Assembly: GCA_030390025.1 (NCBI GenBank)
Contig: JASTWF010000326.1
Span: forward strand, 1 to 64,000
Length of the DNA stretch: 64,000 bases
Direction of reading: 5' to 3'
Source of the DNA: Squalus acanthias
Taxonomy: Eukaryota
Under the pieces are notes generated by a model. The model saw only the letters and a program-made list of their open reading frames with translations, did no database searches and was not told the DNA's origin. Of the stretch, positions 12,377-64,000 are shown in pieces; position 1 is the stretch's first letter, and each line of letters starts with the position of its first letter. Both the position numbers and the translations under genes were made by a program.

Positions 12377-13857
12377 CAAAGAATTGTAGTTACTTTAACA
12401 TCCTTTTTTCTTCTTTTTTTTATTTGTTGGTTTTGTTGAATTATATATTTTTTTTAATTGTAAATATTGGTAACATTATGAGAGAAACTGGCTTTGAGTT
12501 ACTAGATCTGAATGTGATGGAGCTGATTTTGTATCAGTCAATAGAGTACTGACAATTTAGTGATTGTGGTAACTTATGTGTCGATCAGTGATCTGGAAAG
12601 AGCAAAAAGATATTTACCTTGAATTTATGCTGTGGTTCTCCCAATCTCCATTTCTCCAGGCTTTCCACTGATCTTCTGCCAAAATTATGGCAGAACAGGA
12701 AAATTCTGCACAAATTAAGTTATTCATATTTCTCAGCAACTGCTTGATTTTGAATAGGGGCTGACAGCTGAAGATTTTAAGAAAGTTACTACTTGCTGTG
12801 TTAACAACTCAAAACTAATTTACACCATATCCTTGAAAAGGTAATAATAATGAACATTTAATAACTTGCCATTCTACAGATACAAGGCACAAAGTCTTGC
12901 TGACATCTAATCTGAACCATGTTGACCACACCAGCACATGCAGCGATTTGTGGAGAAAGGTATGGGCTCTGAATCGCCAGGTTCCAGCAGTACAAATGCT
13001 TTATGAAAAACGAATTGCGCAAATTGCATACAATCTTCCAACACAAACTGCTAGGTGTAACCCCATTTTATTTTCAATCTTTCTTAATTAAATTACCTCA
13101 GTTCTGGAGATACTCAAAGCCCCTATGGCCTAAGCGTGGAAATCAATGAAATTTAATTTGCCTTTACGCACTGTACAGAAATGCTCAAGTCCCATGCCAG
13201 ATGCGCAACATTTGAATACAGCGATATGGTGAGTTCCACCAATTGTTTAATCATACTTAACTCTGCTGAAGGTACTTACATTGGTTAGAAAGTTGAAGAC
13301 TGAGTGAGTATTGTGCTGATAACTGTAGTAAAGGAACAAGTCTGGTATCAGCATGGTCCAACCTGCACCAGTTCCTTCAACTCACAAAGCAGCAAGAGGA
13401 TGTATCTCTTAAGAAATAGCACAATGTTTCATTAGTTGCTGCTTGGTCTGCCATGCTGAAGTTCATATTTGCAAAAATGGAAATTAGTTAAGCGTGAAGC
13501 ACACAAGTAGAAGCAGACAGATTGCTTTCACTTCAGCCTCTGCTCACTCATCAGGAAGCACAGAAAATGACAAGATGCTGAACAACAGAGAAGACCCAAG
13601 GATACAAAACTGAAAATATAAAATAAGGTACAAGAAATTAGAAAAGAAAACCTAAGGAGGAAAACCAAAAGAACAGGAAGAAATTGAGGAGAAAGAAGAG
13701 ATTACATTTTTTTTTAAATCAAAGAAAAACAAACAGGGCCAAGAGCAGGCACAGCCATGCAAAAATGAATGAGAAAGTCTTTGATGTAGGGAAAGATTTG
13801 AATACATTTTTTCTGTGTTTATATTGTGAATTCTGGGAGATTCTCTCACAGCTACTC

Positions 13858-13893
13858 TACCTGAGGAAGGAGCGACAGCTCCGAAAGCTTGTA
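13858..13893 (+). ncRNA. Minimal type I hammerhead ribozyme (family A)
   Basis: UAC-CUGAGGA-A-GGAGC(GACA)GCUCC-GAAA-GC-UU-GUA: core CUGANGA and GAAA, 5-bp stem II, palindromic stem III, UAC/GUA stem I. Confidence 0.8.
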
Positions 13894-13981
13894 ATTTTAA
13901 ATAAATCTGTTGGACTATAACCTGGTGTTGTGCGACTTCTCATTTTTGTCCACCCCAGTCCAACGCCGGCATCTCCACATC
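13858..13981 (+). mobile_element. PLE family A terminal repeat, solo copy
   Basis: Near-identical to 56204-56328 and 44038-44137, the latter adjacent to a GIY-YIG C-terminal fragment. Confidence 0.85.
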
Positions 13982-14261
13982 AAAAATAAAGTAAGCACAG
14001 TGGTCCCTTATTAATCTGACAATACATCATCTAAATGTATAGCACCCTTGTTCCTGCTGTATCTTCCAAACCGTAAAATTCACTACTCAAAAGAAATGAA
14101 AATATTTATTACAAGAAGATGAACTTAATTAATCAGTAGTGCATTGAAGTTCAATATACAGAATACTGTTAACACAATCAATATACACACTACAGTAAAA
14201 TCAACCCACTTTCAAAAAATATACTGTTCTAGATTGGGCTTTCTCCAACAACCACTTGTTT

Positions 14262-17750: not shown

Positions 17751-17754
17751 AATC

Positions 17755-18140
17755 TCATTGAAACTTAAGATTCTGAGGGGGATTGTCCAGGTCCATGCCG
17801 AGAGGTTGTTTCCCCTAGCTGGAGAGTCTAGGACTAGGGGGCATATTCTCAGGATAAGGGGTCAGCCATTTAAGACTGAGATGAGGAGGAATTTATTCAC
17901 TCAAGAGGGTTGTGAAACTTTGGAATTCTCTACCCCAAAGGCTGTGGATGCTGAATCGTTGAGTATATTCAAGGCTGAGAAAGATAGATTTTTGGACTCT
18001 TGGGGAATCAAGGGATATGGAGATATGGGCAGGAAAGTGGAGTTGAGGTTGAAGATCGAAGATCAGCAATGATCTTATTGAATGGTGGAGCAGGCGCGAA
18101 GGGCCGAATGGCCTACAGCTGCTCCTATTTCTTATGTTCT
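17755..18140 (+). mobile_element. CR1 LINE 3' end
   Basis: [18 protein letters not shown], tail GAATGGCCTAC.GCTGCTCCTATTTCTTATG. Confidence 0.85.
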
Positions 18141-30700: not shown

Positions 30701-31470
30701 GGGGCTGGAATTTGCAGTGGGACCAACAGCATTCCCTGTTATTACTCCTTTGAAAATGACTGCAACTTCAGGATGTAGCGCACACGCATCTAAACGTGGA
30801 AATCCTGAAGCCATTCACTGCTCCAGCACTGGCTGTGCTGTGGCCCCACCATCCCCGCTACCCCGCAACCCCTCCCAAAGCATAGCCGGCAATCAGTGAA
30901 ACTGATGAAAACTTAGGCTTTTCTGTGGTAATATCGCTGTTAAATACCCGATTAAATGCTAGGCCTTGTTGTATTAGGTGTAACTGGGGTTTTAACAGCA
31001 TATTGACTGCTAAAAACACTTATGGTACTGAAAAACTAATTTTAATTTTGTGCAGCAAAAAAATTCTCCATTATGATAACAATTACAATTTTCTAAGAAA
31101 CTTAAAAAAAAGTTATATATATTTTTTTTAAAGTTTCTTCATATTTATTTCAGGTTCTACCTTATCCCCAAGTGAGAGCCCCAAACATTGTTTTGCTCTC
31201 TGTAACATTTTTAGAAAGTTGGGATAAAAGCAGGTTCTTATTTCCTGCTTCCCTGTCTGTGAGAATTCTGCAATGAGATTGGCTGCTTCGACAGCTTGTC
31301 GATGTCACAGCAGATCGCATGAGGGATTCCCCATTATATTTCACTGAAATCACTTGCGCATCAACAAAAGCAAACTTCTCACCACAGAGATCGCGAGATC
31401 TCGGTGAGCAGCTTTCTTCAGGGCCAGCGGTGAACGCCGATGTTTCGCCGCTGACAGCAAATTCCAGGCA
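30701..31470. mobile_element. MITE-like element
   Basis: TIR-like ends GGCTGGAATTTGC / GCAAATTCCAGGC with AT-rich core; related sequence in opposite orientation at ~36840-37330. Confidence 0.6.
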
Positions 31471-31779
31471 AATCAATCTGGGCTAAAAGAATGTGGCTGT
31501 TGAGCTGAGAGGAACAGATTGGGAGACTGGGTGAAAATGAAAACAGGCAGAGGTAACAAGAGGGGATATTTTTGCTAATTTTAGTGAAGACTTGGATATA
31601 AGTATAAAGCAGCATCTCCTGCTATGTAACAGGAGAACCTGGATACTGTGACTAGGTTATCTGGCACAGAAGAAGTGATCAATGACTGGGTGAACATGGT
31701 TGACAGTTACATAATGGAGACTGATTCTGAGAGAAACAATCAAGTTCAGAGAAGAGATAAGGTGTTGGATATTTATGAA

Positions 31780-34700: not shown

Positions 34701-34922
34701 TTCCAGTCCAAGTCACACATAACTCTGACTTGGAAATATAGCGTCGTTGCTGGGTCAAAATCCTGAAACACTCTCCCTAACAGTACTATTGGAGTACCTT
34801 CACCACGCGGACTGCAGCGGTTCAAAAAGGCCACTCACCATCACCTTCTCAAGGGCAATTAGGGAATGGTAATAAAGGTTGGCCTTGCCAGCGACGCCCA
34901 CATCCAATGAACGAATAAAAAA
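31780..34922 (+). mobile_element. Near full-length single-ORF LINE (APE + RT; CR1-group, Zenon/Crack-like), frameshifted
   Basis: PDIVILTESY, YRPPS, VGDFN, NYRPISLLS, ALDIKAAFDRVWH, GVPQG, MFADD, YKAQVRSVMEY; AATAAA-A tail; clade call is inference. Confidence 0.85.
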
Positions 34923-37346
34923 CACACGTCATTGTTTCAGTGAAATAATCTTTCTTTAATTCTGCACACAAATGAAAATATACCCCGAATCTCTAACTTA
35001 GGTACTTGTTAAAAATAACTACACAATGAAAGTGTATGAACATGATTTTACAGCTGGTTGACCATCCTCTTTTTCTAATTGGTTGACAAGATCCTATTTG
35101 GGGTCCATGGGCAGCAGAAAAGAAAAAGCAGCACTGCCGCAATGTGGATGCGGGGTACACTATGCTTGGTGTTGAGCCATCCTATTTTAGTATGGTGGCA
35201 ATCCAGCATGGGGCAGCATTACTGGTATAATAGCTCTGTTCCAATCTGTCATAAATTACAAACAGGGCAGAAAAGACTTCGGGTCTGAAATTCCTGAAAT
35301 TGAAGTTCATTGGAAGTTTGGGCGGAAAACATCGAATCTCCCATTTTTCTTCAAAATTTCACCTAAATGATAACAGCTAAATGAAAAACTATGCTTAAAT
35401 GAAGAAATTGCAACAAAAATTAAATAATAGGGGCTCCTTGTTAAACATAAAAGGATGTCTCAGCAGTGGTCATAATTTCTCTCCTATGAAGTTCAATCTC
35501 CTATGAAGTGCAATCGTGTTGGCAAAACATGCTTATATTTTTACTATTTTTGAAATAATTTTGCGAACCATCAACAGATATTCAAATGTAGCAAATATGT
35601 ATGCGTAAAGCCAGGGTTTCCACCAATATCAAAATGGTGAACAATTCAACTTTTATCAAAAGAAACACATTTGAAAAATGTCCATTGGTTTCTCAGTGTC
35701 TTCTTTCAGATTGACCTTTCCGTTATAAAAAAATTCCAAGCCAACCAACCAGATCTCTTTATAATTTGTAACTAGGCCTGCCAAAAGGTTGTTGGCTGCT
35801 TGATTCCAAATTTGGTGAAATTGAAAATAAAATACATTTGTAAACTTTTGGAAGAATAGTTTACTTCCCCTGACAAAATGAAATGCAAATCCTTCACTAT
35901 TTCAGTTAAGATCAACACTGCTGTTAACAGCACAATGCATTTCCCATGAGTGCCTCAGCAGTATTGTGATCACATCCGAGATTGGGCCCAAGGCATTTAT
36001 CAAACTGAATCTTAATCTGAAAGTATTTCACACTCACATTCCTGCTTGTCCATTAAAAAATATTAACTCGATGAATACTGGACAAATGAGATACTGAGAT
36101 AGCGCAAGTTTTATTCGCAGAGACACTAACTTGCTGTGATTCAGCTTTGTCGACTAAATTCTTAACCCTGCCAAGAGCATAAAGTTGTACGTATCTGGGT
36201 GCCCACTGAGGCATACAAATGAACTGCGTTTTAGCAGTCAGTGAGTTGACAATACAAAACTCTGTTTATTCAGCAATCACTCATTGAAAACACATCAGCA
36301 CTTGATGTGCCATATTCATAATCTCTCTTTTCTGTAATATAATGCTGTAATACAGGAAATAAGGCGACGTGTTGGTTGAGATTTTAGGATCAATTTAACT
36401 GGAGCTGACCCCAGTCCACTGAACTCTAACCTGAAATACTAAACATTCCACAAAAAAAGTACTACAGGTAAAAAAAAATCAGTTTCTTACAAAATGAAGG
36501 GTTCTTCCACATGTAAAAAAAAACCTAGGCCAATCAAACTGCCCTAGTTCTTCTCAACTCACTACTGCTGCTGCAAAAACCTCATAGGACCATCATTGAC
36601 ACTTCTAATGAATTATCAAAATGGCTTTCATCACTCGCAGTTACACTGCTATTCTATATCGTTATGAAGGATTGAACATAAAACTGAAAGATGTGAAGTT
36701 TCTCTCCTAGAGAATGAAATGGAAGAATGAGATATGGCTGAGGAGAACATTTAATATTCAGCTTCAACAGAGCAGCAAAAATAGCCACCACTGTTTCAAT
36801 TTTATACAGATGACTGCAAACCAGTAAAAATTACTTAGCCCCCAGATTTTGCTCTCAGGGGCAATGCAATGGCACTCGCCGTTCACCTTGCTGACAGCTT
36901 CCCACAGACTTTTTGCGGGCTTGTCAATGGAGATTTCCTCTAACCTGGCGTCTTTTCCAGTGTGGCGCCCTCTACAGGGGAGCTGTGGCGTCTGTGAGCA
37001 GGAAAAACCAACAGCGAGGCTCTTTAACCAGATTGAAGAATCCTCTGAGACAGGTATAAACCAGGAACTATAAATTAGATTTAAATCATGTACAGATGGC
37101 GAAATACAGATGGGATTGAGAGAGAGATAAAAAAGACAGACAGAAAAAGCAAAAAATATCAAATTTTAATTAAAAAAAAATCTCCAACACGAATTAACTT
37201 CTGAAGGAATGAGACTCCATACTTGTAAAATTAAATTTTCAGGGCCAGAAAGGTTGTTTGGCAGTAATTATCACTTATCATGCTGATAAAAATTCACTTA
37301 CTACTGAATACACCAGCCCTAACTTTTTGAGCAGTCTTTACAATGG

Positions 37347-37920
37347 CAACTTGCATTTGTATAGCGCCTTTAATGTAGTAAAACATCCCAAGGTGCATCA
37401 CAAGAGCGTTATCAAACAAAATTTGACACCGAGCCTCATAAGGAGTTATTAGGGCAGATAACCAAAAGCTGGTCTAAGAGGTAGGTTTTCAGGAAGAAAG
37501 GCATAGAGGTTTAGGGAGGGAATTCCAGAGCTTAGGGCCTCAGCATCTGAAGGCATGTCTGCCAATAGTGGGGCAATTAAAAATCGGGGACAGGCAGCAG
37601 AGTTTTGGCTGACCTAAGTTTATGGAGGGTGGACGATGGGAGGCCGGCCAGGAGTGCATCAGATTAGTCAATTCTAGGAGGTAACAAAGGCACGGATGAG
37701 GGTTTCAGCAGCAGTTGAACTGAGACGGGGCGGAGTTGGGCAAGGTAGAAGTAGGCGGTCTTAGCGATGGCACGGATATGTGGTCAGATACTCATCATGG
37801 GGTCAAATACGACATCAAGGACAACATCAAGGTTGCAAACAGTCTGGTTCAGCCTCAGACAGTTGCCAGGGAGAAGGATGGTGTCGGTGGCTAGGGAATG
37901 GAGTTTGTGGTGGGGACCAA
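37347..37920 (-). mobile_element. L2-type LINE 3' portion
   Basis: Same tail as 23900-24155 (AACTTGCATTTGTATAGCGCCTTT..., GGGAGGGAATTCCAGAGC). Confidence 0.8.
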
Positions 37921-40277
37921 ATGGCTTTGCTCATCCAGTACTTTAGTGGGGAACTAGTGGGCAAATAGCCCAAGTTCACGCCATTATGGTGATTTCAGTG
38001 CCGAGTCTATCGGCAAGGTGTGTTACAGTGCACCGTGAAGGAGCGGGTTATCTCCGACAGTAACTTTTGCATTTCCGTGTTTAATTGCGCACGTGCGCAC
38101 TCCAGAAGTTGCCGTCAGATTTCCTCCGTTATAACGGTGAGCGCCGATAGCCTCACCGTTATTCTGATTGCAATTTCCGGGTCCTTGTGTTTACTTAGTA
38201 TTAAGTGAAGCTGTCATCATTACACTTTACAGGACTAATATTGTTGCAAACAAAATCCTTAAGTAATCATTAAAATCTTGCCAGCAGCAAATGTTTCACA
38301 CCTCATCAAACTGTCACATGAGGTTGTGATTTCTGATTTACAGTATTTAAAGTCCTCGACATTCCGAAGAGATAAGTAACGTTAATTAGGTAAGGCTCCA
38401 ATGATTCTGAAATCTTACATAATAACTGTCACAGTGTGAAATCCAAGGACTTGTAACTATACTGGTGTCTGCTCAGTGACAAATTTAAAGGAATACTTTG
38501 GACTGGATATTTAAATCCAGTAATATTAATGAGTCTGCCCAGAGTGTTTCCTTAAATTGCAGTTTTCATTATGGCCTATAGAAGCATGACTGCATGCTGC
38601 CTAATTTACAGTTTACACAACCAAATACCTAATGTACCTAATATTACTGATAATATGCATAATGGCCATTTTAAAATTTCTATGAGCAACTAACCAAGGA
38701 TTGGCTAGTAATACAGATACCAATGCATCAAGGAAGTGAGGTGACAATTACTAATTTGTTAGGTTTGAATTTATTTTTCACGTCATTAGTAACTGAAAGA
38801 ACCATGTTCGTGAAGCTTTTAATACAGCTTCAGAGCGAGATATTCCTTTAGTACAAAGTCCTGATGATTGACAGGTCATCAATAGTTTCGAACAGATACT
38901 GGACCAAAGGCAATTTGTGGATTGCCAAGATTCTACAGCACATCCATTAACCAGAGTGTGATACTTACGGAAAATATATGCTGCAGCACTTCTGTTGTAA
39001 GCATTACATGGCTATCCTTTCACTGCTATGAACATTTAGCCCTTGGCACAACAGAACAAATGTTGAAATCAATTCACTGAAAATAGTACTAGAATGTTTT
39101 CACTGGGCCTTAGAAATTACACAATGCTTTTTTTCAGGCGCTATGTACTTCACATTAACTAGGAACACGGTACTTGTTGTCTTAATGACATAATAGAAGT
39201 TTTTCATGCCACTGAGACTCTTATGGAATCTTATCCGTCTAAACTCTGATGCTTGATTCAGAAGGCTGATGTGTACCACTAACCTCTGCTGCTGCAAACT
39301 TGAAATGTTTATAGTTTTGACATCAAATTCACTCTTTGCTGCATGCTCATTGATATTTCGGAGAGATCCATCAGGTCAATTTGAGAGAAAATTAAAACCC
39401 CTCTTCAAATCTTTACTTCCCCCAGCTTTATTTTAACATGCTGTTTTTATCTCCTTTGGCAGAGTTTCCAATTGGGTATGTAAAGTTGATTTCCCACAGC
39501 TTGTGCATACCTCAAGGTCCTTAAGTGATGCTGACAGCCTTATCTCTTGGTTTCTTTGCTCCCTTTGCCGACCTCCCACCCAGTCATCCACGCTCTTGCT
39601 ATCCCACCTTATATGTTAACAACCAAAACCATTCCCACAGTGGCACCTGCCCAATACAAATTAAGTGCCCTCCTACTGACCCAACAAACGTCACAGATTT
39701 TGGGGCAAAACACTGCAAATTGTGACTGCTATTTTCGACCATACTTGGAAGTACACACTCGACTGCAATAGGATCTCATCACAGTACATCAATTTTAATC
39801 ACAGAGCATTCAAAACTTTTCCACCAGGTCCCCAATGAATAAAGCAACTCACTTTGTTTTATTCAATAAAATACGTAGTTAAAAGCATATTCCAGCTAAG
39901 ACTTACAAAAGTGACATTCTCTCACGAAAGGCTGGATAATAAATTGTAAAATCAAATTTAAGTCTACTGAAGATGGTTTAATAGCGGAAGGCAATGCAGC
40001 ATTAGTATGCTGCACCACAAAGTTGGAGGATGTATTTTCAACCTCCCGCATCACTATGTTCCCAATCTCAGTTGTGTTACTATGACAAGGTATTAAGTAC
40101 AGGTCAGGCTTTCCTGGCAAAGGGGAGGAATAAAAAAGATCAAGAATTAGCCCCCAATTGACTTTTGAGCCTAAGAGTAGGTAGCCTAGGCATCCTTTTG
40201 GCTGCAACTGGTGTGTGACCTGTACAGATTAGCATTGGAAAAAAGTGGAAGGAACCATACAAAATAAATAAAGAAAT

Positions 40278-40552: not shown

Positions 40553-43511
40553 GAAACTTTCTTCAATGCACTGTGGTGTGCTATGCTACCCAGGCCATAG
40601 CATAGTAATGTCTTGGGTCCAATTTTTGATCTTTATGAGTTACCTAATCAGTGGTGGAGGGAGCTACAGTTGGCTTCAGTGTCTCCCATAGCTTGGTCAT
40701 TAAGACTTATCTACTGATAGCCAATGTGGATATCTTGAGGACATAGCACAATTGGCTGCGATACCTTTCCCAGTATGATCAAATAGCCCAACAACACTCC
40801 CTGTGCAGGTTTCCACATGAAGAATTCTGCTTGGATCAGGTAGCTGAAGGCTGTGAAACTACTTCAACGTGAGTTAGTACAATCAGAAAAGGGGGGAGGG
40901 GAGGAGAAAAGTTGAAAAACATTGGTAAGAACACTTTCAATATTGATCATCCCATATATCAAAAGCATGGCAGCCATGAACACATTCATATGCACAATTT
41001 CCGATAAATTGTCCAAAAGTACGGTTTGCTGAGGGCAACATTCTATATTGTAACCATTTTTTCACCTGTCAGTGCTCAGCTCAGCACTCCAGCATCAAGT
41101 ACTCCTACATCACCGTATATTATTTCAGAGCACGATAGCTCTCCAAAAATTAGCAGTGAAGTGAACACCCTGAAACATTGGTTGGTGTTTGAACATCTAA
41201 AGGAAGACTCAATTTTAATTTTTCCTGAGTATTCCTTGAACACCTCGAAGAAAACTCAAAGATCATTCAAAATGTGGTGTAAATAAGGCACACACCAAGC
41301 TTAATGTTCAAAAGAAAATTGAAGGACCAATCTGTTTGGTCTGCATAACTTAGAACCACTGAAGTTTACAGCATAGAAGGAAGCCAATCCCCCCACCCCT
41401 GCCAATGTACACATGCTGGCAGTTTGCTCGAGGACTCCAAAACAACTCTCACTGCCCTGCTCCCTCTCCATAGCTCTGTATCTTCCTCTGTGTTAAATAT
41501 TGATTCACTTCTCCTTTTAAAGATGCAGTTGCCTTTCCTCAACCACTCACTGTGGCTTAACATTCCATTATTGAAAAACTTTTTGTATAAAGACATCTCC
41601 CCAAACCTCTCTTCTCACTCAAGGAGCATTTAAAAATCAGAGGAAATTGCCTTTCCCTATTCACCCTATTAAAACCCAGCATAATTTAAAAACCTCAGTT
41701 AAGTCACCTCTTAAGCCTTCCCTACTCCAGTAGAAATAGCCCCAGGATGTCACATCTCTCTTTATAACTATACTTTCCTATTCTTGGCATAATCCTGATG
41801 AACATTCTATGCTGGTGAAGCCAACTGTAGCTCCCTCCACCACTGATTAGCGAACTCAGAAAGATCAAAAATTGGACCCAAGATGGCCTGGGTAGCGTAG
41901 CACACCACAGTGCACAGTGTAAAAAGGGCTGCCGACTCACTATCAGCCCATTCTGTGCTATTGACGTTACATACGAATTAGGAGCAGGAGTAGGCCACTC
42001 GAGCCTGCTCCGCCATTCAATAAGATCATGGCTGATCCGATTACTCCACATTCCCGCCTATCCCCGACCAATTTCACCCCATGGCATGAATGCCCTTTCT
42101 CTGCTGGAGTGCCCAAAACTGCACATATTATGTCAACTGAGACCTAACCATTGCCTTGTACAATTTTATCACTTCTTTACTTTTTTACTCTGTACCTCTC
42201 TGTATAAAACCTAAAATGCTATTGGTCTTTTTATGATCTTATCTATTGGCACCCACACTTTCAGGTAATTTTTGTTTTTTGGAACCACTAGGTGTCCCCG
42301 TTCATCGACACCCATCTTTCCATCTAGTGTATGCTCACATTCCTTCCTTTCCTCTCAAAATGTGTTGCGTCACAATTATCCACATTAAATAGCATCTGCC
42401 ACCTGTCTGCCTATTCCATTAACTTGTCTTCCTGAAGTCTTTTAAAGTACTATTTCAGTAATGCCAACCTCACCTTCTCATAAATCATGAGACAAAATCT
42501 TAAAAATCATAAGTTTTGGTATAGAAATCATGAGTTGCTATTTTTTCCCCAACCCAGCCCCTCGCTGACCTTTGCTCCTGGTCAGGAAGCGCATTCGGCT
42601 GTCACCAACTGATTACTGACAGAACAACATAAGAAATAGGCACCTTGCACTTCTGATCACAAAAAGTAAAAAAAAATAAGGATTCCTGCACGCGTGGAGT
42701 GCGGACCTAATTTCTCCAAAACAGTTACTCAGCCCTCTAGTTATAAACAATCAGTAATAATTACCATGCAATTTTTTTCGCTTCGGATCTAGCCTCTTCT
42801 TTTTTTTTTGCAGTGACTGCCCTCAGGTCACGATGGTGATGATGGTGTTGTATTATAAAAGTGATGGTGCTGATGTATGTTAAAAGCAACTCAGGAGGAA
42901 ACGCACATCGATCCAATGCACATTAATACATTTAAATCTCACTCCCTCTCTCACCCCGCTCTCTATATTTAAAAAAACATGCAGTCACACAGTGCTGAGA
43001 TTGCTGACAATGAAATGCAATGGGTGCTCTCTCTCTCTCTCTCACACACACTCTTTGCAGCTCCTTTCCTCTCTCTCTCATTCCCACCTTCCAGATAACT
43101 TTAATGCAGTCCTGTTGCATTTTTTATCCTTTTGCCCTGATCATTTTTGCAAACTGCATCGTGTTTCTTTTTCTACTTATTTTTTTTCAAATCTTCCCTT
43201 TTTGTTTTGCAGTACAATCCCTTCCCAGTTATAATATTAATGATGTGCAAATAAAGACGGTCGGATCAGAGGAGGGACACTCACTTTGGGAACGAGTACT
43301 TCAAGTTGTACTAAACAGCAGAATTTAGCTTTTAAGATTAATTTACGTTTACAAATAACAATTGAGAAAGCAGATATGCAATCTTTGCTCCAGGGATCTA
43401 ACACTTGTGAAGTGATGGGAATACCGTCCTTTGTTACTGACCAGTTTGTGCTACAACACCTCTGTCGAGTTACTAGATCGGGACCAGCTGTTCCATTTCC
43501 TATTCCACTAA

Positions 43512-44142
43512 TGTGAGAAGTCGCACAACACCAGGTTATAGTCCAACAGCTTTATTTGAAATCACAAGCTTTCGGAGCGCTGCTCCTTCGTCAGGTGAAG
43601 TGAAGAGATGCATATAGGCACAGCATATATAGTCAGAGAACACAGCCAGATGATTACAGTTAATCTTTCCAACTGCCCTTTATCACACCTCAGCAGAGAG
43701 ATAATCACGGCAATCAAAGGTGTGGATGGTGTCCAAACAGGTCAGTCAGGAAAACATTACATCAAAGACAATGTGGCAGATGCTGGGGTCTGTATGGAAA
43801 ACAAAAAACTTTTTTTGCTGGAAATCACAGCAGGTCCGGCCGCATCTGTGTAGAGAGAACAAGCCAACGACGACTTGAGTCTGGATGACTCTACGTCAGG
43901 TGGGGTTACATGTAGCGTGACATGAACCCAAGATCCCGGTTGAGGCCGTCCTCATGGGTGCAGAACTTGGCTATCAGTTTCTGCTCGACGATTTTGCGTT
44001 GTCGTGTGTCTCGAAGGCCGCCTTGGAGAACGCTTACCCGAAAGCTTGTGATTTCAAATAAAGCTGTTGGATTATAACCTGGTGTTGTGCGACTTCTCAC
44101 ATTTGTCCACCCCAGTCCAACACCGGCATCTCCACATAATGG
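43512..44142 (-). mobile_element. 5'-truncated Penelope-like element with inverted terminal repeat
   Basis: GIY-YIG C-terminal peptide RVSVLQGGLRDTRQRKIVEQKLIAKFCTHEDGLNRDLGFMSRY (43906-44037), inverted repeats ~43510-43575 / 44038-44103, 12-bp TSD CTATTCCACTAA (43500-43511, 44143-44154). Confidence 0.9.
43562..43598 (-). ncRNA. Minimal type I hammerhead ribozyme (family A)
   Basis: UCAC-CUGACGA-A-GGAGC(AGC)GCUCC-GAAA-GC-UU-GUGA; stem I covaries with the UAC/GUA copies. Confidence 0.8.
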
Positions 44143-44443
44143 CTATTCCACTAAGATGGTGGTTTTCGAGTACATATGTTTCAAATTTAAAAACCACTGA
44201 TCTGTTAATGGCCAATTGCACTTTCATATGCAATCAATGAAGAACGTCATCTCCAGAAAATAATGTGACCATCCAATACTCCACTCTACAATCGCCGTAT
44301 TTTTTTCTCACGCATGCACAAATCGTGGGGTTTTCCACACATACGCAAATCGGCATATTTTTTCCATGCATGTGCTAATCTCAGGATTTCCCCACCCACC
44401 CCCCCCCCGCAAAAAAAATCCCAAGACTTAGGCATTCCATCGC

Positions 44444-46730
44444 GAGTGTCTGTGGGAGAACACTTGGGTACCAGCGATCATCCTATCATAAGATTTAGAT
44501 TAGCAATGGAGAGGAGCAAGGAACAATCTAGAGTGGAACTTCTAAACTGGAATTGGGCTAACTTCAGTGGGATGTGAAAGGATCTAGCCAGGGTAAAATG
44601 GAACCAAAGACTGACAGGAAAAACTGTAACGGAACAATGGGAGATCTTTAAGGAGGAGATGTTCCAAGTCCAGGCTAGGTACAGTCCAACAAGAAGGAAG
44701 GGTAAGGGAACCAAAGCAAGGGCTCCTTGGATGATGAGGGAGATAGAGAAGATGATGAAACAAAAAAAGAGGGTGTACGATGCATGTCAGGTGAATTCCT
44801 CAAGGGAGAATCAGACCAAATACAATAAGTTGAGAGGGGAAGTGAAGACAAAAATAAGATTGGCAAAGAGAGAATATGAGAGTAGAATGGCGGTTAACAT
44901 AAAATGGAACCCAGAAATCTTCTACCGGCATGTAAACAGTAAGCGGGTAGTAAGAGGCGGGGGGTGGGGCCTATTAGCGACAAAGAATGCTTAGAGGCGT
45001 AGGGCAAGGCTGGAATACTCAATGGGTACTTTGTATCAGTGTTTACTAAGGAGGTGGATGCTGACAAAATATCGGTAGAAGTGAAAAGGTAGAAGCAATG
45101 GAAGGGGTGAAAATTGATAGACAGGATGTACTAGAAAGGCTGGGTATGCTTAGAGTGGATAAGTCGCCTGGTCCAGATGGCTTACATCCCAGGTTGCTAA
45201 GGGAATTGGGGGAGGAGATAGCAGAAGGGCTTGCCATAATTTTCCAATCTTCCCTCGATGCAGGAGAGGTGCCTGGGGATTCGAAAGTGGCAAATGTGAC
45301 ACCATTATTCAAGAAAGGGTGCAAGGACAATCCTAGTAACTACAGGCCGGTCAGTTTAACACCAGTGGTGGGTAAAGTTTTAGAAACAATAATCAAGGAA
45401 AAAATTAACGGGCACTGGGTGAGGTTTAACCTATTTAAGGAGAGCCAACATGGATTTGTAAAAGGCAGATCATGTTTGACTAATCTAATTGAATTTTTTG
45501 ATGAAGTGACAGGCAGGATCGATGAAGGGAATGCAATGGATGTTGTCTACATGGATTGTAGGAAGGCGTTCGACAAAGTACCACATAGAAGGCTGGTAAA
45601 CAAAATTGAGGCTCATGGAATAGGTGGGTCAGTGGCAGCTTGGATAAGGATTTGGCTTAAGGACAGAAAACAGCAAGTTGTGGTAAATGGCTGTTTTTCA
45701 GACTGGAGGATGGTAGACAGTGGTGCTCCCCAAGGGTCAGTGCTGGGGCCACTGCTTTTTTTGATATATATATATATATAAATGACCTGGATATTGGAAT
45801 ACAGAGTAGAATTTCTAAATTTGCCGATGACACCAAACTTGGGGTGTGGCAAACAGTGATGATGATACCAATCGACTGCAACAGGACATAGAAAGGCTAG
45901 CAGAATGGGCAGACAAGTGGCAGATGGAATTTAATACAGAGAAGTGTGAGGTGATGCATTTTGACAGAAGGAACAGGGAGAGGCAATATACACTTAATGG
46001 CACAGTTTTAAAGAGTGTGCAGGGACAGAGGGACCTGGGACTTAATGTGCATAGGTCCTGAAGGTGGCAGGACATATTGAGAGAGTGGTTAGCAAAGCAT
46101 ATGGGATCTTGGGTTTCATAAATAGAGGTATTGAGTACAAAAGTTATGCTGAACCTTTATAAAGCGCTGGTTAGGCCACAACTGGAGTAATGCGTCCAGT
46201 TCTGGTCACCACACTTTAGGAAGGATGTGAAGGTCCTTGAGAGGGTGCAGAGGAGATTTACCAGAATGTTTCCAGGGATGGGGGATCTTAGCTACAAGGA
46301 CAGGTTGAAGAAGCTGGATTTGTTTTCATTAGAGCAAAGGAGGTTGAGGGGTGATTTGATAGAGGTGTACAAGATTATGACGGGTTTGGATAGGCTAGAC
46401 GGGGAAAGGCTGTTCCCACTAGTTGATGTTACAAGGACTAGGGGACACAGATTTAAGGTTTTAGGAAAGAGATACAGGGGGGATGTGAGGAAAAACTTTT
46501 TTACGCAGCGAGTGGTGAGGACCTGGAACTCGCTGCCGACGGAAGTGGTGGAAGTGGAGACACTTAGTGTTTTCAAGGAGACTGGATAGGCACTTGAGGG
46601 AAATAAACTTGCAGGGCTACGGGGATAAAGCAGGGGAATGGGACTAACTGGATTGCACTAGAGAGCCGCCACGGACGCGATGGGCCAAATGGCCTTTTTC
46701 TGTGCCATTATAACTCTACAACTCTATGAT
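44444..46730 (+). mobile_element. CR1 LINE ORF2 (endonuclease end through RT and 3' UTR), young subfamily, frameshifted
   Basis: [60 protein letters not shown]. Confidence 0.95.
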
Positions 46731-47985: not shown

Positions 47986-48933
47986 CAATCAGTCGCTTCT
48001 ATTAAAATTCTCCAACTTGACCTGCTTTCATCAGATCACTGCTGGCTGTACTTAACTTCAACTGTATTTTAACTCAAGTTATGAAGGGTAAAAGTTTGCC
48101 CTAAACTGATGTTAGACTAATTGGTCTATTGTTGCCCAATTCATCCTTCTTGAACAGATGTCTTATATTGGCTAACTTACAGTTCCCTACCACATATTTA
48201 AGTAGGTTTGAAAAAAATGTGGTCAGAACCTCTGCTATCGCCTCTCTGACTTCTTTCAATAGCCCAGGGTCAGGGCCATACCATCAGGGCCTGATTTTAT
48301 GGTCCATCCCAAGTTCTGCTATTTTTTTTTTTTTACAGAATTAATTTCTTAGCTACAATTGTGTCTAACAATTGTTCCACATCATCCTCTAGTACATCTA
48401 CATTATCAAATATTTATTTAATACCTCTGCTATATATTTGTCTCACAAAGTTTTACTTTTATTATGCATATAAAAGCCATACTATTTCCTTTTAGATGAT
48501 CTGCTAGCCTTTTCTCGTATTTCCTTTCAGTCCTTCAAATCTCCCTTTCACCTCCCAGTACATTTTCTATATTTCTCATGATCTTCTTTGGTATTTCCAG
48601 TCCTAGTTTTATCATAGGAACCCTTTAAAGTTTGTTTGGTTTTATCTTTCTATCCACAGAACTCTATTCTTTGATGTGCATCCTTTTCATCTCATAGGAT
48701 GATATCTATTTTGTGCACTATCCATTTCACCACAGCTCAGTTAACTTAAGCCATATCCTTTTCTATCTCTAAACTTTGTCTTTTTCCAGTCCAGCACCAT
48801 TATCCTTTTCAACTTTTACACTGAACCCAACTATTTTGTTATTTTCACTATTTCGAGTTGTTTTCCTACTCACACATCAGTTACTTACCCGACTTCTTCT
48901 CCCAGAACTAAATCAAGCAAGGTTTCTTTCATT

Positions 48934-49135
48934 ACAACAAAAAGAAAATACTGCAGATGCCGGAAATCTGAAATAAAAACAGAAAATGCTGGAGACACTC
49001 AGCAGATCAGGCAGCATCTGTGAAGAGAGAAACAGAGTTAATGTTTCAGGTCGATGACCTTTCGTTAACTCTGTTTCTCTCTTCACAGATGCTGCCTGAC
49101 CTGCTGAGTGTCTCCAGCATTTTCTGTTTTTATTT
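48934..49135. mobile_element. Palindromic PLE family B mini-insertion
   Basis: 71-bp inverted arms (48971-49041 / 49065-49135, 1 mismatch), spacer is a 5'-truncated hammerhead, 15-bp TSD AAGGTTTCTTTCATT (48919-48933, 49136-49150). Confidence 0.85.
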
Positions 49136-51457
49136 AAGGTTTCTTTCATTGTTGGACTAAAAATGGACAGCTCCAGTAAGCAGTCTTTGATGCGTTCTAA
49201 AAATCATTCCCCAATTACTTCATCGTGCTCCCAACATTACTTAGTGCTTTATTTTTTTTTTTTACAGCAAGCCATCTGTTACTTACCATCTAATTTCATG
49301 TCTTTGTGAGATCAGCAGGCAATAGTTTCTGTTCTATTACCAGTTAATGTTACTCACTGAAGACTACTGATTGCCAATGCCCATTAGCAGTTGATGGTGA
49401 AACCTGTTCTCACTTGTACAAAGGCTCTTCAACCAATCGCACAGAGCATTTTGGTATAAAAGAAAACACCACAAGTAACTGCTGTTTTCTTCCACAAAAT
49501 GTGATTTCACTAACCTAAACTCAGTCTTCTCAATACCATTAGGAAATGTCATTTTTTTCTCAACATCCTACAGAATATCGCAGCAAGCTAGTCTGGGTCT
49601 GACAAGTGTGCGCGTAGGATGGCGTACATCCAGTTAAAGTGGAACTTCAATTATCCACCATAATGGAGAAGGTTGTGCCAATTTGCTGGAGGAGAATAAA
49701 AATTGTTGGATAATCGAGGTTACAGTGGGAATGAAGAAGCAGCAGATGACCTTAGTTCTAACATTCCATTTCTTTTCAAATATTTTATTGAGTTATTCTC
49801 AAATGACAAAATATTTGAAGAGAGACAGTATGGAACAAGAACCATGTTTAAAAGGGATTAACGACAGTAGCAGCAGCTGAGGAAAAGAATAGAAAAACAC
49901 GTGGACTGGCAAGTAAAGCCTACCGATCCATTGTTCAAAGGAGCAGGGGAGCTTTGTATACAGAGGTCCTTTACAAATATTAAGTTATTTTTGAGCTTAC
50001 AAAAGGTTTAAAAACAAACAGCATGTAAAAACAGCTGTACAGAAAAGGCTCTTCCACTCCCATGAACAGCTGATCAATATACTTCTCTATCACTGCTCCC
50101 TATAGCAGAGTCTATCTGTCTCTTCACGCCTGCAAAAAATCTTGCAGATAATGGCAATGCAAATAATTCAGAATGGAATATTAACATCTAAACAGGGAAA
50201 AATTCTGAAGAAAACAATTGTGCCTGTCGAGACAGAAACGTTTTGCATTCCATGTGTTGCTCCCTTCTCGGCAGAGTTAAGTCAGGAATAAAGACTTCAC
50301 TAAATTACTTCATTTTAGTCTTATAGGATAACTCACTGCTCAGGTAATTATACAAGCAACCTTTTCAGCTATTCATTTACAAACCATGTCAGTAAATTTA
50401 GGTTATCTGAACATGTTTCACAATGTAACTACTTGACGACATTCATTTAAAAAAAATTGGCTTTGCAATAAATATTGGTAGCCACAGTACTCTTGCACAT
50501 TAATGCCAATTTTGGATCTTCCCCATAAAAACAGAATGTACATTTTGATGTGTTTTTAAACAAGAGCAAAACGCAATACAATAATGTTCATCTTCTTTAG
50601 AGACTGAAATATTCCATGTGCATCATTAGCCTCTGAGCTACAATTTCAGACCTCCTTATCTAAAATCACAGACTAACCTTCAATTAAATTTCCAACAGCA
50701 GAACTGAGGACTATTATTGTCTGACATTGACCAATACAATTCATAAAAAGATTGGCGGTCAATTCACTTAAGTAATAGCTAGAATCACTGAGGTACAATT
50801 TAAGGGCATGACATCAATTAAAAGTTGCCCTTCAATCCAAAATTACACTTTCCATTTAAACACGAGAAAATTCAATTGCCCAGATTGGCCCTGACTTACT
50901 GCTGGTGCAAAAAAGAGTTATAGTAACTGCTACTGATTTTAAAAAAATATTTCCCTTATTTCCCCAGAGGTAATCTTCATTTTGGGCACCGAAATACTTG
51001 AATGCCACAGAAAAGGAAGGTTGTCAGCCAATCCAGCAGCAAAGAATAGATGGATAAGAATTACATTAATTTCCAAACTCCTTTAATTGCTGTGAAAACA
51101 ATTTATTGGGACACAACACCAGCACTTTTCTGGCAGCAAAGCACAATGCCGATTGTAAGCTTGACTGTTCCCCCTTACCAGCATTAACAGTCAATAGTTG
51201 GAGGAGCATATCCTAATTCTAACACTCTGCCCCTGATTATCCTGATCATCACAGAATATAGCAGCATCACTATGGATAACTAGAAAATATTTTTCCTCGA
51301 TGTGGCAATAAGCATCTGGAAGACCAATATGCTCCCTATTTCTGCAACGTTTGGTAACTTTGGTCCAAGTCTTTCACTTGTTTCCCTCTGTATGATTGCT
51401 AAACATTCCAAAGAGAAGCTTTACTTTGTAACAACTGAAATTACATATTTAGATTCA

Positions 51458-53100: not shown

Positions 53101-53574
53101 CTAGAGTCAAAAAAGAAAAGAAATAGCAAATAAATAAAGTGGCTTTTTCACAAAATCAGATGTCACTTATCTATCCCATTTAGTATCCTGAATTTGTCTG
53201 AGCAATTTTGATTGTTAGTTTAAATCACTGGAGTATTATGTTCAAAAGTTTGCTGAAACAAAAAGGCTTCTCCCACTGATGGTTGCTAATGGTCACAGCT
53301 TAGTCTGAAGCATGTAATAGACTGAACTGCAAGATCACCCAATTTGTCAGATGTGGATCTAAAAGGCTTGAATAAGTGAGGAAAAGAAAGTGTGCCTTGG
53401 GATATACTGAGGTCTACTGAGGAAGGAATAGAAGGATATGCTGATAGGGTTAGATGAAGTAAGATGGGAGGAGATTTGTGTGGAGCATAAACACCAGCGT
53501 AGCCTTACTGGGCTGAATGGCCTGTTTCTGTGCTGTAAATTCTATGTAGTTACCTTGATTATGCTTCGGCCCAC

Positions 53575-54838
53575 CCTGTTTCCTGTAAGACCACTCCCTT
53601 CTCCCAGTTTTTCATCACCTCTGCTCGACAATGTCACCTTTCACACCAGATCTTCCAAAATATTTTACTTTTCCCTCAATTGGGATTTCCCCCCAATGTA
53701 GTAGACAGGGACCTCGACTGTGTCTGTCTCATTTGCCGCACTTCCGACCTCCCCCTTTCTCCTCCCTCCCAGAACCATGGTGGGGACCCCCCTTATCCTT
53801 GCCTTCCACCCCACCACCCTCTGCATTCAACAGATTATCCTCCGCCATGCCTGTCGCCTCCAGCGCAAACCCACTAATGAATACATTTACCCCTCCCCTT
53901 TCAGCACTCCAAAGTGACTGTCCCCTCCATGACACCCTGGTCCACTCCTCCATCACCCCAATACCTTCCCATGCAAGCGAAGGAGATGCAACACCTGTCC
54001 TTTCACATCCTCCCTTACCGCCATCCAGGGGCCAAACACTCCCTCCAGGTGAGACAGTGATTTACTTGTACTTTTTCCAGCCTAGCATACTGTATTCGCT
54101 GCTCACGATGTCGTCTCCTCTGCACAGAGAATATCAAACGCAGATTAGGTGATCACTTTGCCGAACACCTCCATTTTGTCCACAAATGTGACTGAGCTTT
54201 TGGTCGTTTGCCACTTGAATTCTGCATCCCACTCGGACATCTCTGCCCTTGGCCTCTTACACTGTTCCAATGAAGCTGAATGCAAGCTCGAGGAACAGCA
54301 CCTCACTTTTCTATTCGACACTTTACAGCCTTCTGGCCGTAACATTGACTTTAACAACTTTTTCTTTTGGACAGAAGGTATGGGTTCATCAGAGCTACTG
54401 AGAATGGGGTAGGTGTGGGCTGATGTCTGGGATGGGGATCCCCTCGACACGGTTGGCGGGCTGGTCCACATCCCTTGTGTCCACCTGCATTTCTTCCACC
54501 ACGTTCTTCAGCTACGGGAGCCTTCTCTGTTTTTCCAGGTATTCCACGCTTCTCTCCCCCTCTACTATTCTGCTGTAACCATTCACACATCTTTCATTTC
54601 TCTAATTACCTCCTTTTGCCTTCTGTCATTTAATCATCTCCTGCCCCCGACCCAATCACGGATCTTTATTTTTTTCTGCCCTCTTTTCCCTGGCTCTCTA
54701 CCTGCTTTTAAGCGGTTCATCTGTAACATCTTCCAGTTCTGATGAAAGGTCATTGACCTGCAATGTAAACACTCTGATTCTCTCCCCACAGATACTGGCT
54801 GACCTGCTGGGTGTTTCCAGAATTTTCTGTTTTTATTC
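53575..54838 (+). mobile_element. Decayed Penelope-like element (family B): ORF 3' part and terminal repeat
   Basis: VVCHLNSASHSDISALGLLHC...KLEEQHLTF...LQPSGRNIDFNNF GIY-YIG C-terminus; terminal repeat matches 49065-49135. Confidence 0.8.
54736..54770 (+). ncRNA. Hammerhead ribozyme remnant (family B), core mutated
   Basis: GUU-CUGAUGA-A-AGGUC(AUU)GACCU-GCAA-UG-UA-AAC; GAAA changed to GCAA, probably inactive. Confidence 0.6.
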
Positions 54839-56163
54839 TATTAGCATTGACAGATCTAAGGAGCAGCCAGGCTAAAAGACCAGTAAATTTTCACTTCTGG
54901 TACCTGCAACACAAAGAAATTTTCCAACCCTCTCGCGCCCGCCCCCCTAACACCCCTCCCCAAGAGACCTTTCAGACCATCAGAAGCATTGCTGCAATTT
55001 ACAGATACTGTATGCATTTAATGCGATCAATCAAGACATTAACTGGTGTTAATCTAATTAAGATTAAATGGAAAGATATTGACCACCCAAATCTCCCTTA
55101 TTATCCTCTCAGTGAGCCAATGTAATCCATTAACAGTAATGTCTCCAGATATTAGGCACTGAGTGGAGGTCAGTAAAGCCAAAGGCTTTTAAGCCAAACA
55201 GTGTACATCTTGCCAAAGCCATAAATTGTTTGCAAAGTGGTTTAAAGATCAGTAAGGCACTTTGGTAAGAGGAAAGCATAATTTATTTAATTGTGCAGAT
55301 ACATTCAAGGGTCTTGTGATGGAAAGAACAAAAAGACATAAAATGCAATACTTATACAAATGGTGACCCATTGACCAACAGTTAAAGGCCTGACTACTGT
55401 CATCATAAATCTATGTACAGAGTAAAGGGAGCAGAGAGATGATCAAATAAAGCAAGTAAAAGCCTTTCTCTAAAGGTTACATCTTTGAAACTAGTCAATA
55501 TGCCCATTAGAAAAAGTGCACTTCAGATTACGCTGCAAACTTTGCAAGCTCATAAATCCTAATAATTCACTTTAAATGCAACAATTTTAACATCTGAGGA
55601 AATATCTTATAACATATTTAAGTGCTGCAAGGTACATCATGTACAGTACAATTTGCACAATGCAATATCTAGGACAGGAAAACCTTACAGGAATTTGCAA
55701 TTTATAACTACAGTTCACCGTTAAAGTCGAGCTCCAATAGTCAAAATCATGCTCCTATTTTCTCATGTTAATTTTACAAAGGTAACATTTACTTTGAAAT
55801 CTGTAACTTGTAGGCCAAGATCTTTCACTCTTCAAATAATTAATTATTTGTAGCTACTATTCATATTGATCTTGTCTTGTCATTTAAAAAAAATATTTTT
55901 TTGACAATTTTCTTCCCTTCTTTGACTAAGACGACAAAAACTGCAGCTGAGGTGCAGTTCCACAAGCGTCATCCTCCAAAACCTCACCCAAGTGAATCGT
56001 GTGTGCTAGGAGGTTCTCTCAGCATGAAGGGCATCACAGCCGAGCCCAAATCCTGTCCTCACCACCATTCAAATACACACCATTCCAGCACAGCTCACTA
56101 GATAATGGCAAAAATGAGAAGTCGCACAACACCAGGTTATAGTCCAACAGATTTATTTAATTT

Positions 56164-56200
56164 TACAAGCTTTCGGAGCGGTTCGCTCCTTCCTCAGGTA
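56164..56200 (-). ncRNA. Minimal type I hammerhead ribozyme (family A), mirror copy
   Basis: Exact reverse complement of 56204-56240. Confidence 0.8.
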
Positions 56201-56203
56201 CCC

Positions 56204-56240
56204 TACCTGAGGAAGGAGCGAACCGCTCCGAAAGCTTGTA
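56204..56240 (+). ncRNA. Minimal type I hammerhead ribozyme (family A)
   Basis: UAC-CUGAGGA-A-GGAGCG(AAC)CGCUCC-GAAA-GC-UU-GUA. Confidence 0.8.
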
Positions 56241-57327
56241 AAATTAAATAAATCTGTTGGACTATAACCTGGTGTTGTGCAACTTCTCATTTTTGTCCAC
56301 CCCAGTCCAACGCCGGCATCTCCACATCATGACCTCTAGATAATGGCAGGAGAGGGAACTGCAGCTGATTCTCCCCTCCTGGAAAGTGGCACCGAGGACA
56401 TTATTAATGTCCCTAACACTTACCTTTAGGGTTTTCTTTGAACATTTATGTTCATGACTGTTTGGCAGTTTGCATAAGCAGCGCAAGTCTCCTATGAATG
56501 AACCAAAAATGTTTGGCCTCATACAAATCATAAAATAGCATGCCCAGGATTAACCATTTTCCCTTACTTGTGTTATAAATCACTCAACATTACGTTGGCG
56601 GTCAACCACATTCTCCTGTCTTTTCCAAAAGTGGCAAATACTAGATTCAGGCCAAAGCTTTTATGCTGAAATTAACTGTCAAATTTACTTACACGTTAAA
56701 TAACAAAAAAAATACAAGATACTGAAAGTACAATTAAAGATATAATCTGCTCATAATACTCCTTTTGTAACAACATATTTTTACAGTTTAATAAGTAACA
56801 GCAATTTTGAACAAAACTAACTTTAGAAGACCTTCATTGTGTGGAGTTGTACATGAATGATGCAAATTTTCAATCCACAGAGTTCAGATTTCCAGTCAGC
56901 ACTAAAACTAAGTGACCAGAGCTGCCACTTCTGCCTTGGGAATCTTTTAAAGTTACAGCCAAGCCTTTAAAGTTAGCTCCCTACATCTTGGCATTACCAT
57001 CTTTCTTCAACTTTCATTTTAATGGTTCAGCAATAAAAGTAATTGAAATTGTGTTTTCCATGAAGAGTTAAATGTGAACATCAAGTGACTTTTGACAATT
57101 TATTTCTGATCAGAGGTGTTGTCATAGACAACAAAAAAAATCAATCTAGATCAGACATTTCATTGTCTGATTATGCAGTCAATCACATGTATTGGTCATC
57201 ATTGATATAGCTGGCTGGATCAAACTTTTAAACCATAATTACCCTGTCCATCTAAAGTCATAAAATATAAATCCCCCAAATTGTAATGGGATGAGATATA
57301 TGTTTACAGTAAAAAAAATGCTCCAGC

Positions 57328-63259: not shown

Positions 63260-64000
63260 AGAGTCATAACGGCACAGGAGGCCGCCATTCGGCCCATCAA
63301 GTCCATGCCAGCTCTCTGTAGAGCAATCCAGTCAGTCCCATTCCCCCGCTCTATCCCCGTAGCCCTGCAAGTTTATTTCCCTCAAGTGCCTATCCAGTCT
63401 CCCCTTGAAAACATTGAGTGTCTCCGCTTCCACCACTTCCGTCAGCAGCGAATTCCAGGTCATCACCACTCTCTGCGTAAACATTTTTTTCCTCACGTGC
63501 CCCCTGTATCTCTTGCCCAAAACCTTAAATCTGTGTCCCCTAGTCCTTGTACCATCAACTAGTGGGAACAGCCTTTCCCCATCTAGCCTATCCAAACCCG
63601 TCATAATCTTGTACACCTCTATCAAATCACCCGTCAACCTCCTTTGCTCTAATGAAAACAAATCCAGCTTCTCCAACCTGTCCTTGTAGCTAAGATACCC
63701 CATCCCTGGAAACATTCTGGTAAATCTCCTCTGCACCCTCTCAAGGGCCTTCACATCCTTCCTAAAGTGTGGTGACCAGAACTGGATGCAATACTCCAGT
63801 TGTGGCCTAACCAGTGCTTTATAAAGGTTCAGCATAACTTCTCTACTTTTGTACTCAATACCTCTATTTATGAAGCCCAAGATCCCATATGCTTTGTTAA
63901 CCACTCTCTCAATATGTCCTGCTACCTTCAGGGACCTATGCACATTAACTCCCAGGTCCCTCTGTCCCTGCACACTCTTTAAAACTGTGCCATTAAGTGT
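63260..64000 (-). mobile_element. CR1 LINE 3' portion, young subfamily, runs off window end
   Basis: Open 213-aa RT C-terminal ORF near-identical to the 16938-17513 ORF. Confidence 0.95.

Follow-up and report, generated by a model that had tools for sequence, protein, structure and literature searches.

Insertions of Penelope-like elements (PLEs) follow a standard plan, in which an inverted, 5′-truncated copy is accompanied by a tail at one end only and by a target-site duplication (TSD) (Craig et al. 2021, PMC8557442; PMC3846280); the one-end tail is also described in PMC11167929. Palindromes at head-to-head junctions were attributed to self-priming (Arkhipova et al. 2013, PMC3846280). For the Poseidon element of Anolis, purified protein was found to nick the two strands of the target and to extend each of them, two RT start sites bound the genomic tail, and hammerhead mutants still insert (PMC11167929). 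Pairs of minimal hammerheads (min-HHRs) on opposite strands, 100 to 700 bp apart, are described in Schistosoma in the main text of PMC4209133, where single min-HHRs gave no cleavage in vitro and dimers were cleaved weakly.

Here we describe a locus of this kind in a 64,000-nt stretch of Squalus acanthias DNA, the whole of which is referred to below as the window. It is a single young insertion. An autonomous PLE of the Neptune type likely produced it in one event, copying its terminal repeat alone, once in each direction, and the hairpin so formed is predicted to lock the hammerheads that it carries.

Anatomy of the insertion

Two inverted arms of 92 nt each, at 56109-56200 and 56204-56295, differ by one mismatch (56123/56281) and flank a CCC spacer at 56201-56203. 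The insert proper, 225 nt long (56111-56335), sits between two direct copies of a 13-nt sequence (56098-56110 and 56336-56348), and the left arm overlaps the left TSD by 2 nt. The features of the insertion, and of the two related copies in the window that are used for comparison, are as follows.

56098..56110, no strand: left TSD, 13 bp; its final 2 nt are shared with the left arm; present as a single copy in the empty allele
56111..56200, minus strand: left arm, the PLE terminal repeat in inverted orientation and with a short tail; many other copies have their ends at the same place (loose ends 56115, 56117)
56164..56200, minus strand: minimal type I hammerhead motif with a predicted cut between 56167 and 56166 (motif scan, stems)
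56199..56205, no strand: centre, consisting of TA, a 3-nt spacer and TA, in the register of the weak native palindrome of copy 13847-13865; loose ends 56202/56204
56204..56240, plus strand: minimal type I hammerhead motif with a helix I of 3 bp, a helix II of 6 bp and a predicted cut after 56237
56204..56295, plus strand: right arm, PLE terminal repeat, with the mismatch at 56281 (minority letter in the run contigs)
56296..56335, plus strand: 40-nt tail at one end only, with an ATG at 56329-56331; loose ends 56330-56338
56336..56348, no strand: right TSD, 13 bp
13841..13982, plus strand: related lone copy of this PLE end with native sequence upstream of the hammerhead; 96% over 126 nt
43500..44154, no strand: head-to-head PLE insertion of a sister subfamily; 12-bp TSD, 88-89% over the repeat

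Recomputation thus recovered the arms, mismatch, CCC spacer and 13-bp TSD of a preliminary description of the locus, which had called the 225-bp unit palindromic. That term holds for the 92-nt arms but not for the unit as a whole, which is asymmetric, the 40-nt tail being present on the right arm only and having no mirror. The same description had reported the absence of an ORF, and indeed no stop-free stretch within the insert reaches 60 codons; the ATG in the tail may be the start of the parent ORF. At the mismatch, the letter at 56281 was the minority letter in all four runs, with G in the majority, a change from CpG to CpA. Both arms differ from the copy at 13858 at the same three positions, which indicates a common origin for the two, either a single RNA or a single source locus. 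As folded RNA, the hairpin has a z-score of −25.7, and none of 200 shuffled sequences was equally stable.

The surroundings were also surveyed. No host gene was found near the insertion among 24 selected stop-free frames, which gave no Pfam match above the cut-off, or with one candidate exon, which gave no homolog. Several long stop-free frames outside repeats at 30500-40230 are candidate host exons, and those tested matched neither Pfam nor a homolog. Exact scans with a 26-nt motif from the arm gave 0 matches in viral contigs and 0 in metagenome contigs. Repeats within the window make up 24% of it, much of which consists of LINE RT fragments, presumably CR1/L2-like, that are numerous (e.g., 8238-9860, 16926-17760, 44578-46660, and 63314-63960), and a 24-bp purine-rich tandem array at 1-900 produces a long false ORF.

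Filled and empty alleles

Contigs from 4 of the 24 listed public runs were compared with positions 55800-56650; contig depths are used as rough ratios only, not as copy numbers. One contig of 1,629 nt (X5 record 9; organism A, sample S2) joins 55800-56097 directly to 56336-56647, and the 238 bases that it lacks are the insert plus one copy of the TSD. A contig from another sample of the same organism (X1 record 2, sample S1, which may be the one from which the window derives) spans the filled left junction with 0 differences, at a depth of 5.8 against 10 on the flank, a ratio that may reflect heterozygosity. Because another individual carries the empty allele, with the 13-bp repeat in one copy only, the TSD claimed earlier is real, and the insertion at 56111-56335 is a real, young, single insertion that is polymorphic within the species.

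Parent element and related copies

Summed over the arms, contig depth reaches 10⁵ to 6 × 10⁶, compared with 10 to 12 on the flanks (X1, X5), a ratio of ∼10,000 to >100,000 that does not stand for copy number. The arm represents the terminal part of a highly abundant repeat. The single copy at 13841-13982 extends beyond the arms, and its sequence upstream of 13858 resembles loose ends in another organism's contigs, which identifies that sequence as native to the element; a start of this copy at 13858, the same base as the arms, had been considered and was dropped on the same evidence. No TSD longer than 8 nt was found for this copy. In its predicted fold, the upstream stretch pairs with the AGCU/cleavage region, possibly a built-in off state of the ribozyme. 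A CUGAUGA ... GAAA spacing with a weak helix II at 13520-13590 on the minus strand is perhaps an old hammerhead-bearing repeat end.

The insertion of the sister subfamily at 43500-44154 preserves some coding sequence. Its short-tail arm (minus strand) contains the hammerhead, then the 3′ UTR, then the end of a GIY-YIG ORF; its long-tail arm (plus strand) starts at 44038; and ∼140 nt of the terminal repeat of a second PLE family (∼43755-43890) lies between the ORF end and the 3′ UTR/hammerhead. Each arm has sequence that is absent from the other, so that a plain fold-back would be insufficient to explain this insertion unless its centre was later deleted. The junction is a 5-nt overlap, located elsewhere in the element than the centre of 56111-56335. 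A third head-to-head insertion, of a different PLE family, is found at 48919-49150, with a 15-bp TSD, a long tail on the left, a short tail on the right, and an uneven centre inside a hammerhead-like motif. Apart from these three, a degenerate 3′ part of another PLE occupies 53500-54840 (plus strand), with a decayed hammerhead-like motif near 54740; its frame at 54149-54409 gave no Pfam match and presumably resembles the GIY-YIG end of the Poseidon type.

The 45-amino-acid ORF end in 43500-44154 matched 14 proteins among 16 candidates, and the named ones are from sharks. One of these, P0002, named from Heptranchias perlo, is 93% identical to the ORF end and has an RT domain; another, P0006, has a GIY-YIG domain. 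P0002 also contains a CX4CxxC linker, which was not seen in the window itself; a CX2-5CxxC linker upstream of GIY-YIG marks Neptune/Nematis PLEs (PMC8557442). From these homologs, the parent looks like a Neptune/Nematis-type PLE. The parent ORF (RT, C-terminal GIY-YIG) is absent from the 56111-56335 copy, whereas the sister insertion has an ORF end that matches RT/GIY-YIG proteins; with ∼140 nt of another family in between, we infer the link of that ORF end to the hammerhead repeat. Among the remaining matches, annotated isoforms of shark XRCC5 and FAM204A (P0001, P0013) end in a PLE endonuclease C terminus, and would be exonised or mis-annotated PLE pieces.

Taken as a whole, the locus has a min-hammerhead pLTR, seen in both arms and in the two related window copies, an adjacent inverted, 5′-truncated partner, a 40-nt one-sided tail, and a 13-bp TSD that is single in the empty allele. 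These features support the earlier proposal that it is a PLE cut down to its ribozyme-bearing end.

The centre varies between insertions

The three head-to-head insertions of the window have a plan in common, but their centres differ. The same was seen in the run contigs: all 15 listed joints (of 59) connect a place in the left arm with a place in the right arm, all at different centres, and their arm starts are spread over element positions 1-99. Several of the listed joints have depths of 67 to 294. The shorter sides of the joints are 20 to 29 letters long, weak by the program's own flag, and copies with exactly the centre of 56201-56203 never appear as joints, so they are omitted from these counts. 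Loose ends (24 listed of 485) fall at 56115, 56117, and 56295 and at 56330-56338, ∼40 nt apart, which resembles the pair of RT start sites on either side of the tail in Anolis Poseidon (PMC11167929). Given the different centres of the two other window insertions and of the 15 listed joints of 59, the mirror was most likely built anew at each insertion rather than copied from a master.

The exact centre at 56201-56203 had no match among the contigs listed. A centre of the same geometry does recur, in X5 record 11, which aligns over 83 nt with 8 differences and no gap, at a depth of 181 compared with 12 on the flank (∼15×). That this record is a plain native copy was considered and rejected (15 and 23 mismatches/27 expected).

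The native sequence at the corresponding place suggests where the centre comes from. In the copy at 13847-13865, two 8-nt stretches separated by a 3-nt loop are complementary at 6 of 8 positions, in the exact register of the centre; the chance of such a palindrome is 0.4% by the binomial and 0.5% over the window. Similar native contexts, TA-(3-4 nt)-TA, are present in loose ends before 56202 and 56204 and in the insert of joint 56200>56286, the 6/8 palindrome being represented by one window copy and short loose ends. The sister subfamily has no such palindrome, with at most 5 of 12 positions complementary. In view of the native TA-(3-4 nt)-TA contexts, it is likely that the spacer is native sequence of the right arm and that the arms meet at a TA/TA overlap. 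Judging from these few sequences, such a micro-palindrome could make the same centre arise repeatedly with no need for a master.

Record 11 bears directly on a different reading, in which the 225-bp palindrome moves as a non-autonomous unit in its own right: a master copy of the hairpin, seeded by the native fold-back site, would be transcribed, primed through its tail by the protein of a Neptune-type PLE, and reinserted with its centre fixed. Recurrence of the geometry at ∼15 times the flank depth is what this reading expects. The copy at 56111-56335 is also recent and still polymorphic, the hairpin does not include the tail that priming would require, and non-autonomous derivatives of PLEs are known (PMC8557442; bioRxiv 2026.07.22.740005). 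We nevertheless consider it unlikely. The centres vary among the 15 listed joints of 59 and in the two other window insertions; record 11 differs at 8 of 83 letters; with an arm depth ∼10,000 to >100,000 times that of the flank, the same junction is expected to arise more than once by chance, the more so at a native micro-palindrome; and both outer ends of the insert are ordinary PLE end positions. The amplified family with a fixed centre that had been suggested earlier is therefore disfavoured by the variable centres, although record 11 may be an echo of it.

The place where the arms begin could also be read as the start of an RNA. The starts of the two arms are no more than 3 nt apart, at the 5′ edge of the hammerhead, a pyrimidine tract ending in CAG lies just upstream in the native copy (13841-13851), and in the Penelope element of D. 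virilis an intron ends at the 5′ end of helix I, according to the main text of PMC4209133. This reading would leave the identity of the element unchanged, and we consider it very unlikely, since other copies extend upstream of the hammerhead (13841-13857, 43597-44043, and loose ends), the loose ends in X1/X5 include a variant without the AG, and most of the 15 listed joints (of 59) begin downstream.

Hammerhead motifs

Each arm opens with a 3-nt helix I, followed by a CUGANGA core, an extra A, a 6-bp helix II, and GAAA; where helix III would be expected there is a palindromic AGCU, with H17 being U at 56237 (plus strand) and at 56167 (minus strand). The features of minimal type I hammerheads are therefore present, namely, the core, helices I and II, the extra nucleotide 9/10.1, the G10.1-C11.1 pair, and the palindromic 15.2-16.2. 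In the four sequences from the window, 32 of 32 stem cells are paired, with one compensatory change, in helix I, between the subfamilies; this covariation amounts to one pair in four sequences and does not stand above shuffles, 129 of 500 of which were as good. The Rfam hammerhead models gave no match, either at E values up to 10 or at the gathering score, and the best Rfam matches were miRNA hairpin models, far under the gathering score. The hammerhead call thus depends on the motif together with its stems and on the setting within a PLE: the earlier claim of complete hammerheads is borne out by the motif and stems of both arms, but not by the Rfam models.

Since the two motifs lie on opposite strands, one RNA holds a single motif and its antisense, and dimerisation in cis is precluded. 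Fold prediction agrees with the earlier view that the transcript of either strand carries one ribozyme and its antisense, with the hammerhead buried in a ∼92-bp duplex. Forcing the hammerhead fold in the full hairpin is predicted to cost 62 kcal/mol (top strand) or 60 kcal/mol (bottom strand), and the predicted probability of helix II in the full transcript is ∼10⁻¹⁸. Pairing of AGCU between two molecules is predicted at −4.9 kcal/mol. Cleavage by hammerheads as dimers has reportedly been described by Lunse et al. (RNA Biol). The motif probably works in the parent but is probably silenced in the 56111-56335 copy.

The intact cores of both motifs, the compensatory change in helix I, the predicted intermolecular pairing of AGCU, and the 92-bp duplex that read-through RNA would form might together be taken as signs of an active ribozyme or retrozyme unit at this locus, or of a functional source of double-stranded RNA for ADAR/Dicer. 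We regard this as highly improbable: with opposite-strand motifs one RNA is ribozyme plus antisense, tandem units are absent, the predicted helix II is all but unpopulated, single min-HHRs did not cleave in vitro (main text of PMC4209133), the covariation is indistinguishable from that of shuffled sequences, and the insertion is missing from another individual, which argues against a fixed host role. We give least credence to a fold-back artefact of the assembly or the library: although near-perfect hairpins are a known sequencing artefact and the exact centre is unmatched among the contigs listed, the 13-bp TSD has a clean empty allele, the filled left junction was recovered in X1 record 2, and the mismatch between the arms, the asymmetric tail, and the same anatomy in two more window insertions speak against it.

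A model for the insertion

The reading that we prefer, a one-event insertion by an autonomous Neptune-type PLE, can be set out as four steps. The GIY-YIG endonuclease of the element would nick both target strands, 13 nt apart. Each target 3′ end would then be extended into an antisense copy of the tail region, with starts at 56335 for the long tail and at ∼56293-56295 for the short tail, from the same RNA or source locus. Copying would halt just upstream of helix I, at the weak native palindrome, where the ends would be joined through the TA/TA overlap, or a single cDNA would fold back. Fill-in would finally give the order TSD, inverted arm, tailed arm, TSD. Both target 3′ ends do adjoin antisense tail sequence, one from each start, and the locus at 56111-56335 is compatible with both routes, dual priming and fold-back. 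The hammerheads are passengers of the terminal repeat of the parent, and the copy itself was most likely dead on arrival.

Comparison with known systems

Under this model the locus is an ordinary, very young PLE stump, of modest value as a specimen for how PLEs form head-to-head insertions. It comes with filled and empty alleles, its ends and its centre are sharp, and the native micro-palindrome on which the centre falls yields a prediction that could be tested with PLE components in vitro. Were a family with this fixed centre amplifying, it would join the tandem retrozymes as a new form of non-autonomous element derived from PLEs, and might be regarded as a retrotransposon-derived analogue of MITEs with a self-silenced ribozyme on both strands.

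The layout is already known, from the opposite-strand pairs reported in 2014 and the junction palindromes reported in 2013; what the present analysis contributes is the empty allele, together with the native micro-palindrome with which the centre coincides. A literature search, mostly of open-access main texts, found no account of such PLE stumps in sharks; sharks are not named as min-HHR hosts in the results and discussion of PMC4209133, the supplements of which list further motifs that may include such cases.

The likeness is close to the endonuclease-positive (EN+) PLE insertions of PMC3846280 and PMC8557442, which share with our locus the head-to-head terminal repeats, the junction palindrome, the 30-40-nt tail at one end, and the TSD. 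The differences are that 56111-56335 keeps no ORF sequence, that its arms represent only the last ∼90-130 nt, and that the host is a shark; the TSD is 13 bp here compared with 8-10 bp in Adineta (PMC3846280). The motifs likewise agree with the min-HHRs of metazoan PLEs in the main text of Cervera & De la Pena 2014 (PMC4209133) in the core, the extra nucleotide 9/10.1, the G10.1-C11.1 pair, and the palindromic 15.2-16.2, whereas helix I is 3 bp here and 4-5 bp in Schistosoma, and the two motifs of our locus are only 3 nt apart.

Non-LTR retrozymes of animals, as described in PMC7229834 and bioRxiv 10.64898/2026.07.22.740005, are also non-coding, 150-450 nt in length, equipped with type I hammerheads, and akin to PLE repeats, but they are head-to-tail tandems that give rise to circular RNA, whereas 56111-56335 is one head-to-head insertion with minimal motifs. 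The earlier designation as a retrozyme, which needs a head-to-tail tandem with at least two hammerheads on one strand, therefore does not apply to a locus that has its motifs on opposite strands and no tandem unit. Nor does the designation as MITE-like, since MITEs derive from DNA transposons and have terminal inverted repeats at both very ends; our locus has asymmetric ends, with 40 nt outside the inverted repeat at the right end, and its source is the terminal repeat of a retroelement whose parent encodes an RT.

The closest experimental counterpart is the Poseidon element PAc of Anolis carolinensis. According to Frangieh et al. 2024 (PMC11167929), PAc uses two RT starts and both target strands are nicked and extended, as we propose for the insertion at 56111-56335. 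RT by PAc needs no target homology to begin, whereas at our locus the left end shows short matches to the target and the right end is suggestive of them, and PAc is a Poseidon element, whereas the parent here looks to be of the Neptune/Nematis type.
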